Origin: a virus
Lineage: Duplodnaviria > Heunggongvirae > Uroviricota > Caudoviricetes
Strand: one strand, 5' to 3'
DNA: 34,153 nt
IMG/VR virus record: IMGVR_UViG_2874968258_000005
Positions within the stretch are counted from its first letter, which is position 1; the number at the start of each line of letters is the position of its first letter. Under the pieces are notes generated by a model. That model made no database searches. It worked only from the letters and a program-made list of their open reading frames with translations, and was not told the origin of the DNA. The translations under genes were made by a program, and so were the position numbers. Positions 1 to 25,200 of the stretch are shown here, in pieces.

Positions 1-696
1 TCACTTCGGGTAAGGCTGAATCCTGAATAGCTTAGTATTTAGCCGCTTCCTTGCTCGCTTGTTCAGGAATCTGATGTAACGATATTGATTAAATTTGTGC
101 GCCACGGCCCGCTCCTTATTCGCTCGTAAATATTCGCCGCGCTTCCCTCCACGATTAATCGCATTCATCGTTATCTCGTGATACCACTCACCGTCCAGTT
201 CGTAGAATGTGCTTTCATGGCTGCCAATAAAATCAAAATTTGACGCCTGATACACAACACCTGCACGCCCGCAACGTTCGTCTGCAAAGGACTGAACCCA
301 CTCCACTGACGGATACAGTAACCTGATGGTTTTCAGCGCGTAGCTGATGGCCCGTGATTCAGAGTTGCGGGGCATGTCGTCGTGTAGCCACATGCGGTTC
401 AGTTCCATATAGCCCCGGTTATCCGTTTCAAGCACAACGCGACGCCCTGAGTTGGGGTTAAGGGCATATCCCCACTGAAGAACACCAACCAGATCACGTC
501 CACTGAATACGCCCAGATGCAACCAGGAGTTATTCACAAAACGGCGGGAATAATGCTTTGTCTGAATGATTGTGCGGGCCAGCCAGCAGGATATGGTTTC
601 AACGCGCAGCTCCCTTGAACCATAGCCGACAATCCGGCCTTCATACTCAATAACGCAGGGTTTTGTCAGAATGCGTGATTTCTTCTCTTTTCCCAC
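1..696 (-). CDS. mom: DNA modification protein Mom (adenine modification, anti-restriction)
   Basis: Last gene of the element, directly downstream of and overlapping com as in Mu. Track ORF 1..738 begins at TTG; an in-frame GTG at 696 gives a 231-aa product, the length I recall for Mu Mom. Stop TGA at 1..3. Confidence 0.75.
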
Positions 697-832
697 AATA
701 CAGCTCCGTGGGATGCTCCCGGGCACTCGATATGACAATGTAACGTTTACAGCGAGGACATTTGATTTCTATATGCTTAAAACCTCCTTTAAACAGCAAT
801 TTATTGCAATTTTTACAACGAACAGAGTCCAT
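647..832 (-). CDS. com: Com, zinc-finger translational activator of mom
   Basis: 61-aa product [14 protein letters not shown]...CPRCKR...[12 protein letters not shown] with a CxxC...CxxC zinc-finger pattern matching Mu Com. ATG at 832 preceded by GGGGGAA. 3' end overlaps the mom start region. Confidence 0.8.
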
Positions 833-906
833 AATTTCCCCCAGTGTAATAACAGGATATAGCTGCCCGGAGGGCTGGGGGTATTTAATCACACTTGATG
901 CAAACC

Positions 907-934
907 GACGATCGATATGATGCTATCGATCGTC
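907..934. promoter_or_regulatory. Inverted repeat carrying two GATC (Dam) sites upstream of com-mom; candidate methylation-sensitive regulatory site of the mom promoter
   Basis: GACGATCGATA-tgatgc-TATCGATCGTC: 11-bp perfect inverted arms, each with a GATC, about 75-100 bp upstream of the com start on the transcribed strand. Confidence 0.5.
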
Positions 935-956
935 ATAAACTATACAAACTGATTAT

Positions 957-1523
957 TTAATCGCCTGGTCTGAACGCTCTCACCTCGTCCAGTGTGGGCA
1001 ACAGAGAAAGTTGTTCTTTCATCTCCCGCTGACAGCGATAAATCTCATCGTTGCGCTCAACAATGGCCTGTATCATCGCTGTGGCCAGTTCCTCAAGTTC
1101 CTGCGTCGTCAGCTGCACCTGCTGATTATCCGCATCACTCCACGCCATATGTGTTTGTGCCGCGACAGATTTTGCCAGCATGACCACCGGGGACAGGCGG
1201 GCCACTGACGAGGCGTCAGCGTTCCACGTGCGACCGTTCCATTCAAACGTGAACGGCTTCGCCTCCTGTTCTGTGCGCCATGCTTCAATTCCCTGACGTC
1301 TGGCCTCTCTGGCCGCTTCCAGCATTTCTGGTGTCACAGTGAATGGGGCTATCTCACCCCATTTGCCGCTTTGCAGTTCCTGCCAGATTTGCTGACCCGT
1401 CGGAGCGACATCATCAGCGGTGGCTGTGTAGGGGACTGCCTGGTCCCTGTCGTCAAAAAAAACGTCACAGTCTACTGCGCCACTTTCGGTATAACGGGGA
1501 TTAATGATTTTTTTAATTTCCAC
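957..1523 (-). CDS. Tail fibre assembly protein (chaperone) for the second fibre
   Basis: Sits immediately after a fibre gene; size and position typical of Tfa. Start chosen at the in-frame GTG at 1523, preceded by GAGGAA and just after the fibre stop at 1534; the track ORF extends to 1583. Confidence 0.55.
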   Translation of the reverse strand: MEIKKIINPRYTESGAVDCDVFFDDRDQAVPYTATADDVAPTGQQIWQELQSGKWGEIAPFTVTPEMLEAAREARRQGIEAWRTEQEAKPFTFEWNGRTWNADASSVARLSPVVMLAKSVAAQTHMAWSDADNQQVQLTTQELEELATAMIQAIVERNDEIYRCQREMKEQLSLLPTLDEVRAFRPGD

Positions 1524-1533
1524 GGTGCATTCC

Positions 1534-2937
1534 TCACGATGTGCGAATAAAAAGCCCGGGCATTGCGCCAGAGACATGAGCATCCGGCACCCCGGACAGG
1601 GCGCAATATGACCCCGGTAATGAATGCTCTGAACATCCCGTAATGAAAAATTGTGGGGATGCTATATACGTTCCGGTGGGAGTACTGGGCACTGAAATCC
1701 CCACCGGTCCCAGTCGTGAGCCTCTGTATGACTGCCCCCTGACAAGTCTGATGACTTTATCACCGTCAGCTTCTCCCTGGTACGCAGCAATAATCAGCCC
1801 GCCAATGTCAGGGTCTCCCCATCTGTTGCGGACAGAGCTCGCCACGATTCTGTAAATAATATCTTCTGTGGTTATATCTATTTTCACCCAGCCAGTCAGT
1901 CTGGATATGGGCCAGTAGCAGTAGCGGGTGTGATAAATGGGGCCGTTAATGCCGTAAAAAGTAAGGGATTTGGCTCTGTACCGCGGTTCTGTTGTCTCAG
2001 GGCGTGCATCAGTCCACCGGATGCTGAGCACCCCTTCAAACCGTGTGTCGGGTATGATGCCCAGGCGGCCAGCAACGGAATACTCACCTGGCAGCGCATT
2101 CCTTACCCAGGCCAGGAAATCACTCTTAGTGTCAAAACGGATAACATCTTCAGGCAGAAAAGCACACCCAAAGCCGAATGCGCCGGGTATCGCCAGACGG
2201 CCTTTTGTCCGGTCGTAAATGTCGCTCTGTGCTTCCATCGTGGCTGCACTTTTCAGCCCCAGATTATCCCGGGACTTCTGTTGTGCCTTTTCGCCTGCTG
2301 CTGCGATTTCAGACAGATGGTTAGCCGTTTTCAGAGTGCCGGTCAGCGCAGCATCAATGTCATTTTTGGCCTGTTCTGCTGCGCGGGCATAACCTGCGGC
2401 TGCCTGTGCACGCTGACCGGATAAGACGGCGTTTTTCCCCGTGCTTTTCACGTCTTCCGCTGTGGCCTTTCTGTTCTCAGCTGTGACGGTTGCATCCTGT
2501 CGGGCTTTCTCCGCAAAACGTTGTGCATCATCACGGGCCGTTGCGGCTGCCGTCACATCCTGCGCCGTCTGCCGTGCGTTTCCGGCTGCGCTCCCGGCAC
2601 TCTGCTGCGCCTGTTGCGCCAGCTCTTCGAATTTCTTCAGGGATTCCGGACGCAGGTCAATATTAGTTGCGCCCAGAAAATCATTCAGCGAACCGTCCGT
2701 TGAATCTTCATAAACGCGGATGACACCGATTTCTGAAAGGCGCCGTGTGCTTTGTGTCAGGCGAACGCTGTACACACCCGGCAGAACGGGGAAGTCATAT
2801 TCCCCGTTCTGTGTGGTGACATGGCTGAAAACACTTTTCAGAATCCCTGCACGGTTGTGTATGGAGGTTAGTGTAATGGTTGCGCCGTCCAGCGGTTCTC
2901 CCGTGGGCGTTTTAATCACACCTTTAAGCTGCGGCAT
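1534..2937 (-). CDS. Tail fibre protein 2 (N-terminal prophage-tail-fibre-type domain, Ala/Gln-rich coiled-coil shaft, C-terminal beta-rich tip)
   Basis: 467 aa. N-terminus MPQLKGVIKTPTGEPLDGATITL..., a long AQQAQQSAGSAAGNARQTAQ shaft, and a Gly/Tyr/Trp-rich C-terminal domain. Followed by a Tfa gene. Confidence 0.65.
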   Translation of the reverse strand: MPQLKGVIKTPTGEPLDGATITLTSIHNRAGILKSVFSHVTTQNGEYDFPVLPGVYSVRLTQSTRRLSEIGVIRVYEDSTDGSLNDFLGATNIDLRPESLKKFEELAQQAQQSAGSAAGNARQTAQDVTAAATARDDAQRFAEKARQDATVTAENRKATAEDVKSTGKNAVLSGQRAQAAAGYARAAEQAKNDIDAALTGTLKTANHLSEIAAAGEKAQQKSRDNLGLKSAATMEAQSDIYDRTKGRLAIPGAFGFGCAFLPEDVIRFDTKSDFLAWVRNALPGEYSVAGRLGIIPDTRFEGVLSIRWTDARPETTEPRYRAKSLTFYGINGPIYHTRYCYWPISRLTGWVKIDITTEDIIYRIVASSVRNRWGDPDIGGLIIAAYQGEADGDKVIRLVRGQSYRGSRLGPVGISVPSTPTGTYIASPQFFITGCSEHSLPGSYCALSGVPDAHVSGAMPGLFIRTS

Positions 2938-3469
2938 CGGGACGCTCCGGCCAGTTGATGGCGTTATATGTGGCTTTATCTGTGATGGTGCTGAAATCCA
3001 TCGCCTGCAGCGATTTCGCGTAAATACGGTACGCTTTCAGTTTTTCCCGGTCTTCGTCGCTGATTAGCCCCAGCAGCAGGTCTTCTTCCCATTCCCCTGT
3101 CCGGGCACTGACCTGAGCCAGAAGGGCATCACGCTCATCTTCCGCTTTGAGTCTGTAGTCAAAGACAAATTCATCATTGCGGTAAAACCAGTAACCCGGC
3201 GCGGTAATGCGGCGGTTGGCGGTAATATCAGGAACTTCAATAACACTGGCGTTACGGGGTTCAATGCCTGTCACATCCTTACCGACCCACACCACGCGCC
3301 CGTCTCCGGTGTAAACCATTTTTATGGTGTCACTGGCAAAGTTCTTCTGTTCTTCATACCAGTTTTTGCCGTCTTCCGAAAAAAGCCAGGTGACATCATA
3401 CTGTTTTGTCAGCTGATATTGTTCCGCGGTTTTCGGATTACCTGCCGTAATATTTTTTAAATGCAACAT
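2924..3469 (-). CDS. Tail fibre assembly protein (Mu U / lambda Tfa-like) for the first fibre
   Basis: 181 aa directly after the S-like fibre. C-terminal region (...KLKAYRIYAKSLQAMDFSTITDKATYNAINWPERP) resembles the Tfa C-terminal domain. Confidence 0.7.
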   Translation of the reverse strand: MLHLKNITAGNPKTAEQYQLTKQYDVTWLFSEDGKNWYEEQKNFASDTIKMVYTGDGRVVWVGKDVTGIEPRNASVIEVPDITANRRITAPGYWFYRNDEFVFDYRLKAEDERDALLAQVSARTGEWEEDLLLGLISDEDREKLKAYRIYAKSLQAMDFSTITDKATYNAINWPERPDAAA

Positions 3470-3471
3470 TG

Positions 3472-4572
3472 TTAAATACTCGCTACGTTATACCAGGTGC
3501 CATTAATCAGTTTTTGCAGCGGTCGGTAATACACACCGTTGACGTTATCCGCTGAGTTACGGCCGGTATCCGATATCGATATCCCTGACAACCCGTGTCC
3601 CGAAGGTGAGCGAAACGTCCATGAAACGGTGTTGCTGCCAGGGTTGTAATACATTTCATAACCATACCGCACATCCTGTACCCCCTCAGTTCGATGTTTA
3701 TAGCGGGCATCGAAGTTTCCGTAGTCTGACGGTGTTACCCGTCCTGTAACGTTTACAGCTTTATTACTCTGGATACTGCCACTCTGAAAACGCAACACAT
3801 GCACGCTATTGGCATAAACATCCAGCAGGCCATCACCATTCTGTTTGAATCCGGTGTCATTATCACCAAGAACAATTGAATTCCCCCCCAGGGCGTTCTG
3901 AACGCCGATACCCAGCGCACCATTGACCTGCGAACCACCGCCAACAGACACTTTATGCGACATGGATATTTCACCCGTCCGCAGATTAATGGTGAACGGA
4001 CGCAGGGGGCCAATATCGCCATTCTCGCCCTGACCTTCACTGGTAGGGATAAGGTGCAGGCACTCTTCCGAACGACGAAAAATCAGGCCAAAAGCTTCGT
4101 TGAAAATCCTCAGCGCATTAACACCACGGATTTTCAGCTCTCCTGTCATCGTGCCGCCTGATTGTTTTATGACTTTCAGTGCATCTGCAAAATCTGTTGC
4201 ACTCTCTTTGCCGAGAATACCGCGCACAAAAGCACTGAGCGGTGTTAATGCCATTGTGTCTTTGCCGGTAAAATACGGGAATGTATTATTCTGACCGGTT
4301 AATCCGGCAATAGCACCGGCTGAACCACTGTTCGTAATAAACAGCTTTTTCAGCGCCGTCATAATCTGGTTGGTTGTGTTTTTATCCGGTTTGATATTTG
4401 CCTGCCGGAGTATTTCCAGTAATTCAGACTGAATAATATTAAACCAGTCCGGCCCCGGATAGGTGGGCGGAATACCGTTCCCGCCTTCGGTGAAATAAAG
4501 CGTTGTTTTGCTTAATTCTGCCGCGACAGGTGGCATTACCGGCACACCCGTCGGGTTATCCACATAAAACAT
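3472..4572 (-). CDS. Tail fibre protein 1 (Mu S-like, conserved N-terminal baseplate-attachment region)
   Basis: 366 aa. N-terminus MFYVDNPTGVPVMPPVA...YFTEGGNGIPPTYPGPDWFNIIQSEL is typical of Mu/P2-type fibre N-termini. Position is right after the baseplate genes. Confidence 0.7.
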   Translation of the reverse strand: MFYVDNPTGVPVMPPVAAELSKTTLYFTEGGNGIPPTYPGPDWFNIIQSELLEILRQANIKPDKNTTNQIMTALKKLFITNSGSAGAIAGLTGQNNTFPYFTGKDTMALTPLSAFVRGILGKESATDFADALKVIKQSGGTMTGELKIRGVNALRIFNEAFGLIFRRSEECLHLIPTSEGQGENGDIGPLRPFTINLRTGEISMSHKVSVGGGSQVNGALGIGVQNALGGNSIVLGDNDTGFKQNGDGLLDVYANSVHVLRFQSGSIQSNKAVNVTGRVTPSDYGNFDARYKHRTEGVQDVRYGYEMYYNPGSNTVSWTFRSPSGHGLSGISISDTGRNSADNVNGVYYRPLQKLINGTWYNVASI

Positions 4573-4575
4573 AAA

Positions 4576-5160
4576 TTATTCTCCGGTGTAATAATATTCA
4601 TATTCCGTGCCCGCCAGCCGGTAATGCTTCAGCAGGCATTCCAGCTCGCGGGTCCGTTCGCTGATTAATGGTGTCATGACGCCATCAATACAGGTAAACC
4701 GCCCGGCATCTTTACCCGGGACGTTCACTTTCAGCATCCAGCGATACCGCGCCGGATGCAGCGGATACATGCAGTCGCGCAGACAGTGGTGCGGCAGAAC
4801 GGCTGTCACCTTAATGGTGAAGCCCAGCGCCGCTGCTGCGGCTTCAGTCTGCCAGGTTGCCAGCCCGCCCCTGCGACGGTATTTCTCCACCACGGCACGG
4901 CGGCGGGCTTCCCTGGTGGTGGGGGCAATTCCGCATTCCGGCAGCGCCAGATACTGCTCCCACTCCGGCAGCAGCCGGAGCGTGGTTTCCGGGCGCATCT
5001 CCACATGCAGACGCGAGGCGTCGTATTCAGTGCGGTTTAAACGTTCTGCAAGCGCCCTTAAAAAGCGGTTTAAATCCGCGTCGTTATCACGCGGCCATGC
5101 CTTACCCCGTGGCATGACCTGTTGCAGTGCGGCCAGCCATTCCGTCACGCTGTGAGCCAT
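4576..5160 (-). CDS. Baseplate/tail protein, Mu gp48-like (DUF2313, P2 gpI-like)
   Basis: 194 aa between the baseplate J-like gene and the fibre gene. Family assigned by synteny and sequence character. Confidence 0.55.
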   Translation of the reverse strand: MAHSVTEWLAALQQVMPRGKAWPRDNDADLNRFLRALAERLNRTEYDASRLHVEMRPETTLRLLPEWEQYLALPECGIAPTTREARRRAVVEKYRRRGGLATWQTEAAAAALGFTIKVTAVLPHHCLRDCMYPLHPARYRWMLKVNVPGKDAGRFTCIDGVMTPLISERTRELECLLKHYRLAGTEYEYYYTGE

Positions 5161-6221
5161 GTCGCCTCCCCGATGGTGATAAGCTCATCCACATCACTGG
5201 TGGTGTCCTCCCCGATGTTAAGGAAGTAATCCGTGATGCCGGACGTCATACCGATGGCCGTGCGCAGCGAGGACACCGGCAGCGTCTGACCGGGTGCCAG
5301 TGTCTTCTGTAACGCGGTCAGGTTTGCCCGGACGGCGCTCCTGTTCGCTAGGCTGTCCGGTGTCAGACGGATGGATATGCTGACTTTCTTCAGCCTGACC
5401 TGTACCGGCCAGACCTCAATGCCGCCCGGTTTGCCCACCATCACGCCCGTGGCCGGGTGTTTGTGGCAGAACAGATACTGCTCCATTGTCTTCAGATCTT
5501 CGCGGGTTGGCACGATGTTTTCCCGGTCATCATAAAGCCATGCCAGCCCGACCGTGCCGGGGCCGTGCCATGCATCCCACGCCCACGCGCGGCTGACGCC
5601 CGGCACTTCACGCGCCCATATCACGTAGTCATGCAACGCGCCGCCTGTCGGTGGATTGCGGCGCACATACAGCAGACGGTCCAGCAGCGCTGCGATGGAT
5701 TCAGTGTCTGCGCCACCGGTGATGCCACCTTCAGCCACCGCGCCTGTGCTGGCCGTTCCGGGCAGCGGGGACAGCAGGGTGAGTACGGCACCGGCAGCAA
5801 GATTGCCCGCCACACCGGCTTCTTCAGCCTGCACGATGACGGTGACCTCGCCGTCCTGCACCTCGCCGGACGTGAGTACCTGATACACCTGGTTCGTGTC
5901 GGACTGCATCCGGGTTTCTGCCGGAAGGGGGGACTGACTGGTGAAGGTCACCCGCCCGCTGGCAAAGGTGGCCTGCTTGCGGATAACCCCTTCATACTTT
6001 GCTGTTTTGATAATGGTTTCATCATCAGACGTGGTGGACGGGATTATCTGGTCCTTAATCCAGCTCTGATGGTCGTATAAATCCCGGACCTGACTGCTGA
6101 ATGACACGTTCAGCGCCTGCTCAACACTGACAGGCGGCAGCTTTTGCAGGCCGAGTTCATACGCAATATCTTTTTCGCCGTCGGCAATCAGTTTGCCCAG
6201 CGTGGGGATTTCATACGGCAT
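5145..6221 (-). CDS. Baseplate J-like protein (Mu gp47-like)
   Basis: 358 aa in the baseplate block. Length and position as for Baseplate_J family proteins. Confidence 0.65.
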   Translation of the reverse strand: MPYEIPTLGKLIADGEKDIAYELGLQKLPPVSVEQALNVSFSSQVRDLYDHQSWIKDQIIPSTTSDDETIIKTAKYEGVIRKQATFASGRVTFTSQSPLPAETRMQSDTNQVYQVLTSGEVQDGEVTVIVQAEEAGVAGNLAAGAVLTLLSPLPGTASTGAVAEGGITGGADTESIAALLDRLLYVRRNPPTGGALHDYVIWAREVPGVSRAWAWDAWHGPGTVGLAWLYDDRENIVPTREDLKTMEQYLFCHKHPATGVMVGKPGGIEVWPVQVRLKKVSISIRLTPDSLANRSAVRANLTALQKTLAPGQTLPVSSLRTAIGMTSGITDYFLNIGEDTTSDVDELITIGEATWLTA

Positions 6222-6663
6222 TAATGGTGGCCTCCCATCGACGGGTGATTTCGATTCTGAGTGTGGTTTTGTCCGGGCGGGTTAACACCACCAGAAAGGC
6301 AATACGGTCAGGAATGATGATGCTGGCCGTGACGGTGGCGTTACGGGTGTAACCGGCATGCAGAAGCGGCTGCATGGACAGCCGCGCGTAATCTTCCACG
6401 CGCAGGCGGACATCTTCCGTCAGCTTTTCACGCTCAAGCAGCCACAGGCGGGAACCCCACGAAAAATCGTTGTACGTGTCGCCCGGCCAGCCGCGCGGGT
6501 CGCCGGAGCCGTCAGGAATGACATCATCGTCATCAGCGCGGGCATCGGTGAAAAGGCAGATAAGAACCTGAGTGACCAGCCCCTCATCCCGTGAGAGGCC
6601 GTTATGGGTGACGGTGATGTCACCCCGTGAGAGCATGTTATTCCAGCGGATTTCTGTCGTCAT
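6211..6663 (-). CDS. Baseplate wedge protein, Mu gp46-like (GP46 / P2 gpW-like)
   Basis: 150 aa in the baseplate block, overlapping neighbours by 4-11 nt. Confidence 0.6.
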   Translation of the reverse strand: MTTEIRWNNMLSRGDITVTHNGLSRDEGLVTQVLICLFTDARADDDDVIPDGSGDPRGWPGDTYNDFSWGSRLWLLEREKLTEDVRLRVEDYARLSMQPLLHAGYTRNATVTASIIIPDRIAFLVVLTRPDKTTLRIEITRRWEATINAV

Positions 6664-24612: not shown

Positions 24613-25200
24613 TCATCCCCGCGTGACGGACGACACGTTGTCGATAATTTCCAGACAGGCGTCGGTCACTTTCTCCATGCGGTTAAACCAGCCGTTCAGG
24701 TATTTGCCCTGGGCAGGTTTGGATTTGATGATGTCGGCATAAAAGCGGGAACGACGGACAATGCAGCGGGTCAGCAACCAGTCCGGGGTGGACAGGCTCA
24801 CTGCCTTACGGGTACGCGGACCGATGATGCCGTCAGCATCCACATCAGCGGCTTCCTGCAAAATCCTGATAGCTTTTTTAACGCCATGCTGAACCGCCGC
24901 ATCGAACACAAACATCGCCACGCCATCAGGCCACTGGTCACATCCGGCAGGCAGCCAGTAATCGCGCCAGTAAATCTGCGCGACCTGTTCGCGGGTTAAA
25001 TCCCTGATGCGGGTATCCGGTTTACCGTCGCCGCTGACATCGGTTTTGCCGTCAATCACACCGTCGCGGCGGTCAGAAATGCCGTATCTGGTTTCGCCGC
25101 CACGGTCAGTGGGGTCATTGACATAGACGCCTTCGATATCGGGACGCAGAATAAAATTCAGCGCATACTCAAAGGCCGGGGAGAATTTTTGATTTTCCAT
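24613..25200 (-). CDS. Endolysin, GH108-type muramidase with C-terminal peptidoglycan-binding domain
   Basis: 195 aa. N-terminal ...FEYALNFILRPDIEGVYVNDPTDRGGETRYGI... is the GH108 signature region. AGGTG RBS. No SAR or signal-anchor segment. Confidence 0.8.
   Translation of the reverse strand: MENQKFSPAFEYALNFILRPDIEGVYVNDPTDRGGETRYGISDRRDGVIDGKTDVSGDGKPDTRIRDLTREQVAQIYWRDYWLPAGCDQWPDGVAMFVFDAAVQHGVKKAIRILQEAADVDADGIIGPRTRKAVSLSTPDWLLTRCIVRRSRFYADIIKSKPAQGKYLNGWFNRMEKVTDACLEIIDNVSSVTRG

Follow-up and report, generated by a model that had tools for sequence, protein, structure and literature searches.

Two co-directional tail-fibre genes and their putative chaperones in the G-segment slot of a Mu-like prophage lineage

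The tail-fibre locus described here has its closest counterparts in phages Mu, phiP27, lambda and XM1. In Mu, the slot between the gp48 gene and com-mom is taken by the invertible G segment, with the S/U and S′/U′ gene pairs, the recombinase Gin and the gix crossover sites. The integrase-type Stx2e phage phiP27 (NC_003356) carries, after a Mu-like baseplate (homologues of gp44-48), four genes, L54-L57, in the order short S-like fibre, Caudo_TAP chaperone, PF08400 fibre and a DUF4376 protein of 188 amino acids (aa). Stf of phage lambda (Ur-lambda), an adsorption fibre that is accessory and non-essential (PMC12617516), combines an N-terminal collar with a coiled-coil shaft and an exchangeable tip, and gp40 of the Vibrio myophage XM1 (7kjk), a simple contractile-tailed phage, likewise joins an Ig-like N-terminal domain to a coiled coil. 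Here we analysed IMG/VR record IMGVR_UViG_2874968258_000005, a 34,153-nucleotide (nt) stretch of DNA (henceforth, the window) that represents a Mu-like transposable prophage read in reverse, and in particular the four fibre and putative chaperone genes that its minus strand carries, with the gp48 wedge gene on one side and com-mom on the other. These genes are the same four as in phiP27, in the same order; they occupy the genomic slot of the Mu G segment, and the first pair is homologous to S and U/U′. The original prediction, made from the sequence alone, had proposed two tandem, co-directional fibre-chaperone pairs that replace the G segment and provide a fixed dual-fibre host range rather than a switch. 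The tandem layout is borne out by four open reading frames (ORFs) that together span 957-4572, and a fixed dual-fibre module without a switch is, in our assessment, highly probable, given the intact pairs, their tight packing in one orientation, the lack of a recombinase and crossover sites, and the conservation of the layout among relatives.

Two unrelated fibres and their downstream genes

The block starts directly after the gene for a gp48/YmfQ-family baseplate wedge protein (4576..5160, minus strand; 194 aa; PF10076 Phage_Mu_Gp48, E 3e-30), which is 32% identical to Mu gp48. Fibre 1 (3472..4572, minus strand; 366 aa) aligns with residues 1-127 of Mu S at 39% identity (E 8e-23) and, through its C-terminal 236 residues, with Mu S 258-503 at 30% identity; it matches PDB 5yvq_A (E 1e-34) as well as PDB 9ki1 and covers phrog_6859 end to end. 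By these matches, fibre 1 is a shortened homologue of Mu S and a predicted baseplate tail fibre. The N-terminus of the Mu fibre docks on the gp48 loop 133-155 (PMC11915804), and the gp48 homologue of the window would, by homology, be the docking platform for fibre 1. Immediately downstream lies Tfa1 (2924..3469, minus strand; 181 aa), a PF02413 Caudo_TAP chaperone of the Mu U/U′ type (E 3e-26; 92.7 bits, cutoff 22.1) that is 41% identical to Mu U and 47% identical to U′, matches PDB 5yvq_B (Mu U; E 8e-39) and shows a ratio of nonsynonymous to synonymous substitution rates (dN/dS) of 0.07 against the locus L005. The order gp48 homologue, fibre with S-type N-terminal anchor, PF02413 protein, each gene directly following the last, is the S/U arrangement of Mu, so that the first pair is what it had been taken for, a Mu S-like fibre and its Tfa. 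In public gene calls for the source chromosome (L058 4789-5466, equivalent to window ~3472-4149), fibre 1 is only 225 aa long; the 366-aa ORF with its S-like N-terminus is intact in the same DNA, and the shorter call is an annotation start-site problem.

Fibre 2 (1534..2937, minus strand; 467 aa) carries the PF08400 phage_tail_N domain over residues 4-129 (E 2e-29; 102.8 bits, cutoff 26.6) and is not similar to fibre 1 (best E 6.4), as expected for an unrelated fibre with a different N-terminal domain. It can be divided, on the same strand, into an N-terminal anchor (aa 1-95; 2653..2937), an Ig-like collar domain of the lambda Stf and XM1 gp40 type; a shaft (aa 96-230; 2248..2652), Ala/Gln-rich in composition; and a C-terminal distal, receptor-binding region (aa 231-467 and the stop codon; 1534..2247). 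The anchor matches PDB 9e7m (lambda Stf residues 1-94; E 2e-9) over residues 3-90, and fibre 2 matches the XM1 gp40 collar spike (7kjk_A3; E 5e-8) over residues 3-184, the N-terminal domain of lambda Stf being the closest by E-value among the solved homologues. The shaft aligns with the coiled-coil region of XM1 gp40 and is presumed to be a trimeric coiled coil. An AlphaFold2 model of the C-terminal 252 residues (mean pLDDT 74) resembles phage receptor-binding proteins and fibres, with BFVD matches to the tail fibres of coliphages Av-05 and Goslar (E ~1e-10 to 1e-11), which agrees with the view of this region as a receptor-binding tip.

Fibre 2 thus resembles lambda Stf in its homologous collar (~40% identity; PF08400 above the gathering score), coiled-coil shaft and exchangeable tip. 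Unlike the lambda Stf/Tfa pair, it belongs to a myovirus virion, its C-terminus is unrelated to the gp37-like tip of Stf, and the gene downstream of it encodes a DUF4376 protein, not a Caudo_TAP chaperone. With XM1 gp40, fibre 2 shares the Ig-like N-terminal domain and the coiled coil; the C-terminus of gp40, however, is a Det7-like tailspike, whereas that of fibre 2 is fibre-like, and the gp40 gene, in contrast to that of fibre 2, is not adjacent to a baseplate fibre gene.

The last gene of the block (957..1523, minus strand) follows fibre 2 directly. Its longest ORF, 957-1583, runs from ATG 1583 for 208 aa and belongs to PF14301 DUF4376 (E 7e-16, 59.1 bits against a cutoff of 25). A GAGGA motif lies 7 nt upstream of GTG 1523, which is itself 10 nt past the fibre 2 stop codon, and most of the 1738 DUF4376 homologues are 187-191 aa long, with 188 aa as the modal length; given this motif and these lengths, the gene most likely starts at GTG 1523, with a predicted product of 188 aa. 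The protein has no similarity to Tfa1 (E 1.8) and, being a PF14301 protein, is not a lambda-type Tfa. The expectation that the second fibre has a Tfa of its own was therefore right with regard to a downstream gene of a chaperone class and wrong with regard to Tfa homology and, probably, to the start codon.

DUF4376 proteins encoded after fibre genes are required for functional fibres of the Alteromonas phages V22 and A5 and for the H-fibre of C. jejuni CJIE1 (PMC7289586, PMC7882524). These proteins (V22 gp27, A5 gp9 and the CJIE1 H-fibre partner) are likewise PF14301 members of ~190 aa whose genes come directly after that of a fibre, as in the window; the link is at the level of the Pfam domain only, the cognate fibres being unrelated to fibre 2. 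Thus, the second chaperone belongs to an experimentally validated family that differs from Caudo_TAP, which is one of the new points of this analysis, and by analogy the DUF4376 protein is presumed to be the dedicated chaperone of fibre 2. Its dN/dS of 0.16-0.33 indicates constraint. In a relative from E. coli STEC719 (L004 3507-6084), a 301-aa fibre 2 is followed by a gene for an SGNH/GDSL hydrolase in place of DUF4376.

Within the four-gene block, intergenic gaps are 2-10 nt, or there is a 14-nt overlap, that of the fibre 2 start codon with the end of Tfa1. No terminator signal rises above the shuffled background in the block, promoter and terminator scans both being at background level. In blastp comparisons over essentially the full length, the window proteins are identical to their phiP27 counterparts at 58% (fibre 1/L54), 73% (Tfa1/L55), 37% (fibre 2/L56) and 67% (DUF4376/L57), and the two phages differ in kind, phiP27 being of the integrase type and the window phage transposable, with com-mom. 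In the literature searched, we found no functional characterisation of L56 or L57 and no discussion of PF08400 fibres in Mu-like phages.

No inversion system in a lineage separate from Mu

Whereas Mu has Gin, gix and an inverted second pair, the window lacks all three, and fibre 2, which bears no relation to S′, is equipped with a separate anchor, so that both fibres could be made at once, unlike the alternating fibres of Mu. We looked for a hidden inversion system of the type found in Mu, P1 and e14 (Gin, Cin and Pin), that is, for an invertase, crossover sites and an opposite-strand pair, and found none of them. Mu Gin compared by tblastn with the whole 34-kb window in six frames gives a best E of 1.9, and none of the 19 other window ORFs scanned has a Resolvase/integrase Pfam domain, in line with the prediction that the window encodes no serine recombinase. 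Neither the Mu gix sequence nor a degenerate gix/hix pattern matches the window at up to 3 mismatches, and the longest inverted repeats in 1-6500 are at most 25 nt, with 72-93% complementarity, which is the level expected by chance. There is no alternative fibre C-terminus or chaperone on the opposite strand; the Tfa homologue is single and in one orientation. On these grounds (Gin, gix patterns and inverted repeats), a hidden inversion system was rejected.

One repeat was considered separately. An exact 15-nt direct repeat, TGTAACGTTTACAGC, has one copy at 739-753, within com (codons RCKRY), and another at 3745-3759, within fibre 1 (codons AVNVT). Its coding-strand sequence includes CTGTAAAC, a portion of the Mu gix half-site, and the copy in fibre 1 lies where a megablast block of 94% identity (window 1015-3750), shared with ipaH-type prophages, ends. 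As a crossover site it was rejected: the copies are direct, lie in different reading frames and are expected ~0.02-0.04 times by chance; the repeat is probably a coincidence.

The conservation of the layout was assessed in 44 Mom-anchored IMG/VR loci typed by tblastn, a census used instead of a mom-anchored scan of genome contigs, which returned only 3 loci. All 18 loci of the window tail type (gp48 at least 91% identical) have the order fibre 1, Tfa, PF08400 fibre, com-mom, with DUF4376 after fibre 2 in most of them, and none of the 18 has gin. By contrast, in ~24 Mu-proper loci (gp48 and the S N-terminus ~99% identical to Mu), the U/U′ pair is inverted and a full or truncated gin is present in nearly all, whereas a third group has a single S-U pair. 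Within Mu proper, four loci (L032-34, L036) have gin truncated to ~55 aa in prophages that are otherwise identical to Mu, two (L038, L043) lack gin while keeping both U and U′, and another (L035) has a single S-U pair; all of these are frozen G segments within Mu proper. Among 5426 complete E. coli genomes, the window tail genes occur in 54 and the Mu tail genes in 46, and the PGAP annotations of many genomes already include the four genes.

The head, tail and baseplate proteins of the window are only 27-50% identical to those of Mu at the amino-acid level. The window is strongly mosaic relative to Mu (L057), in that other genes are much closer to it or absent: mom is 94%, gam 91%, gemA 79% and com 71% identical, while MuA and the Mu repressor, lysozyme and gp37 have no tblastn match in the window at 1e-4. 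Comparative analysis thus places the window phage in a separate Mu-like lineage, to which the dual-fibre layout is ancestral. The notion that the fibre pairs replace the G segment accordingly holds for the genomic slot and not for descent from Mu itself.

Two further regions differ from Mu. The neck genes (13649-15402, minus strand) are in an order unlike that of Mu: the Phage_tail_S/'Neck1' gene (Mu G-like; 14423-14968) has the gp36 adaptor gene (14965-15402) on one side and, on the other, that of a gp37-like terminator (13815-14426; phrog_490), which is followed by a 66-aa gp38-like ORF (13649-13849), whereas in Mu itself G lies upstream of the protease gene. The endolysin (24613-25200, minus strand) combines GH108 and PG_binding_3 domains and is not homologous to the Mu lysozyme.

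On its other side, the block is bounded by a 124-nt spacer (833-956), past which com begins, so that com-mom directly follows the second pair, as had been noted. The spacer contains, at 910-931, two GATC sites 18 nt apart within TCGATCG-type palindromes upstream of com, which we take to resemble the Dam/OxyR-controlled Pmom region of Mu. The com gene (647-832, minus strand; Pfam Zn_ribbon_Com) is followed downstream by mom (1-738, minus strand; Pfam Mom). Across the 8.9 kb compared, CP032523.1 is 100% identical to the window, and database proteins identical to the window fibres carry the label Shigella sonnei. In the source chromosome (L058 9722-13404), mhp genes for 3-hydroxyphenylpropionate degradation are ~0.8 kb from the mom end of the prophage, whereas a near-identical prophage in E. 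coli VL40 adjoins a type VI secretion system vgrG/rhs locus; such differing sites are as expected for random transposition.

A portable anchor and the docking site of fibre 2

We compared the whole window by tblastx with an ipaH-carrying myovirus prophage that is unrelated to it (DUF3383 sheath, DUF2612 wedge) and found similarity only at 972-3927, a span that takes in the last third of fibre 1, Tfa1, the complete fibre 2 with its anchor, and DUF4376. Two subtypes of the fibre 2 anchor, mutually 38% identical, are each 98-99% identical across at least two unrelated tail types: 'MPQLKG' occurs in the window lineage and in one ipaH-type prophage (98% identical), and 'MSVVISG' in phiP27, in phage pPE4 (99% identical) and in another ipaH-type prophage, with the fibre cassette as the sole shared part of pPE4 and phiP27. 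The N-terminal anchor of fibre 1 (~aa 1-130) is always specific to the tail type, that of fibre 2 never, and fibre 1 is exchangeable from ~aa 215 onwards. Within the lineage, the fibre 2 anchor is 78-96% identical, Tfa1 32-95% and the fibre 1 C-terminus 40-82%, whereas the shaft and C-terminus of fibre 2 are replaced wholesale, with synonymous divergence (dS) saturated, and fibre 2 is 347-1040 aa long in relatives. By these comparisons, the fibre 2 anchor moves along with the cassette from one myovirus tail type to another, unrelated one, which is a further new point. Fibre 2 of the window has a dS of only 0.03 relative to the copy in an unrelated prophage, against 0.35-0.37 for the flanking Tfa1 and DUF4376, a difference that points to very recent transfer of the fibre 2 allele or to gene conversion between prophages. 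The suggestion of a recently acquired receptor-binding module can thus be upheld only for the shaft and tip, and perhaps for the fibre 2 allele as a whole; the anchor is conserved across the lineage.

The reading that best accounts for these data, and that we regard as moderately likely as a whole, is a constitutive two-fibre host-recognition module with fibre 2 as an accessory fibre that may be attached to the neck. The four close-packed genes would be expressed as part of a late tail operon, after the baseplate wedge genes, so that every virion would carry both fibre types. Fibre 1 would dock through its S-like N-terminus on the gp48 wedge loop as six trimers, and the U-like Caudo_TAP chaperone would fold its tip. 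The role of fibre 2 would be that of an accessory fibre of the lambda Stf type, whose Ig-like collar domain would sit on the outside of a hexameric virion ring, followed by the coiled-coil shaft and by an exchangeable receptor-binding C-terminus folded by the DUF4376-class chaperone. Placed in a fibre collar at the head-tail junction, it would serve in reversible primary adsorption or in extension of the host range, like lambda Stf or the L-shaped fibres of T5. Host range would vary not by inversion but by horizontal swapping of cassettes among prophages, each made up of the distal half of fibre 1 and its Tfa together with all of fibre 2 and DUF4376. Given that fibre 1 has a gp48-docking N-terminus and fibre 2 has none, the two fibres could not compete for the same site.

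The neck position is the more tentative part of this reading, and we give it at best an even chance. In lambda, a collar of 12 Stf N-terminal domains, set around the junction of the gpV and gpM rings, bears the four side fibres (PMC12617516); in XM1, 18 N-terminal domains of gp40, belonging to six trimers, bind the neck proteins gp4 and gp5 (PMC10457771). The match of the fibre 2 anchor to solved collar domains at two different sites, the tube/tip junction in the case of lambda Stf and the neck in the case of XM1 gp40, is the third new point. Under the simplest reading, the collar domain would bind a structurally generic ring, and the exposed rings of a sheathed tail would be those of the neck. 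The neck is favoured because the myovirus tube is sheathed and because the only solved myovirus homologue, XM1 gp40, is located there.

Several observations weigh against this reading. Both the presence of fibre 2 in virions and its site are inferred, and the neck proteins of the window (13815-14426 and 14423-14968) have no sequence match to XM1 gp4 or gp5, or to any PDB neck protein. The same domain lies near the tail tip in lambda, so that a site close to the baseplate is possible, and a fibre of ~467 aa, which we estimate at ~25-30 nm, would be too short to reach the cell from the neck along a tail of Mu length. Compared with its two nearest alleles, fibre 2 has a dN/dS of 0.65-0.98 (0.98 overall, 1.27 for the C-terminus), close to 1 and derived from only ~40 substitutions, which is compatible with either diversifying or relaxed selection. 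In three relatives (L016, L020, L044), fibre 2 is cut to 156 aa, which implies that the fibre is dispensable, at least for prophage persistence. Finally, the host record is a Shigella-type genome, in which many prophages are decaying.

To transfer the neck location of XM1 gp40, we also considered whether the ipaH-type tail module is XM1-like; this was dropped, as its sheath matches that of the Pseudomonas phages E217 and Pa193 and its terminator matches nothing.

The strongest competing explanation places fibre 2 close to the baseplate, as a side fibre of the lambda kind that would be anchored around the tail bottom, at the lowest sheath ring or at the periphery of the wedges, and would act at the cell surface alongside fibre 1. 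The lambda domain is, after all, the closest solved homologue and sits at the tube/tip junction, the fibre 2 gene lies within the baseplate and fibre gene block, and a fibre of this length would reach the cell surface from the baseplate. However, the sheath and wedges of a contractile tail cover the rings that correspond to gpV/gpM, as the Mu structure shows, the sole myovirus homologue whose position has been solved lies at the neck, and the anchor is 98-99% identical across tail types whose baseplates are unrelated. We therefore consider a baseplate-proximal site unlikely, although less so than the explanations that follow.

Selection on fibre 2 and what the module means for Mu-like phages

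A different kind of explanation is that fibre 2 and DUF4376 bring nothing to this phage: they would be cargo of a defective prophage, either hitch-hiking or in decay, and would owe their intact state to chance or to gene conversion from co-resident prophages. The dN/dS near 1 among close alleles and the truncated forms would fit such decay, as would the recent conversion suggested by the low dS of fibre 2, the presence of up to eight related places per genome and an IS66 insertion in the tail genes of the partner prophage (L009). Against this, the 467-aa ORF is intact and has full-length homologues, the anchor (the N-terminal 95 residues) is under purifying selection, with a dN/dS of 0.12-0.33 across the lineage at dS up to 0.9, and the values for DUF4376 given above likewise indicate constraint. 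Moreover, the layout is kept in all 18 relatives and in the inducible phage phiP27, and we saw no frameshifts in the Mu-homologous genes of the window. The cargo explanation is thus improbable: decay is possible for the copy in the window, and unlikely for the lineage. Overall, fibre 2 is probably a functional accessory fibre. In the three relatives with 156-aa forms, only the anchor is left and com follows directly; these forms recall the stf frameshift of lambda PaPa.

Branched receptor-binding complexes are known in other phages, such as G7C and CBA120, and attachment of fibre 2 to fibre 1 or Tfa1 would explain why the block common with unrelated tail types begins inside fibre 1 and ends with DUF4376, yet such a branched fibre is very improbable, given that the anchor is constant while Tfa1 and the fibre 1 tip vary, which leaves no constant partner inside the cassette, and that the solved homologues bind ring proteins, not fibres.

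These findings do not overturn the current understanding of phage host recognition: accessory fibres, modular exchange of fibres and DUF4376 chaperones are all established, and the arrangement itself is widespread in Escherichia and Shigella prophages and present in the published phage phiP27, so that its novelty is modest. For host-range prediction and for the engineering of phages and tailocins, the portable anchor of the predicted accessory fibre is of practical interest: if it binds any neck or tube ring, it would be a handle for adding a second specificity to a myovirus. A bolder proposal, which we advance with less confidence than the two-fibre module itself, is that the Stf-type collar is an adaptor, independent of tail type, that lets a complete accessory fibre, with anchor, shaft, tip and chaperone, pass as a unit from one contractile-tailed phage to another, unrelated one, and that it forms a ring of neck fibres on a Mu-like virion. 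If this is true, a lineage as common as Mu would have swapped a phase-variable host range for two receptor-binding organelles displayed at the same time, one at either end of the tail. With regard to the biology of Mu, inversion of the G segment emerges as a feature of the Mu-proper clade rather than a general property of Mu-like enterobacterial phages, in that a sister lineage, equally prevalent in E. coli and Shigella, appears to use a fixed pair of fibres.

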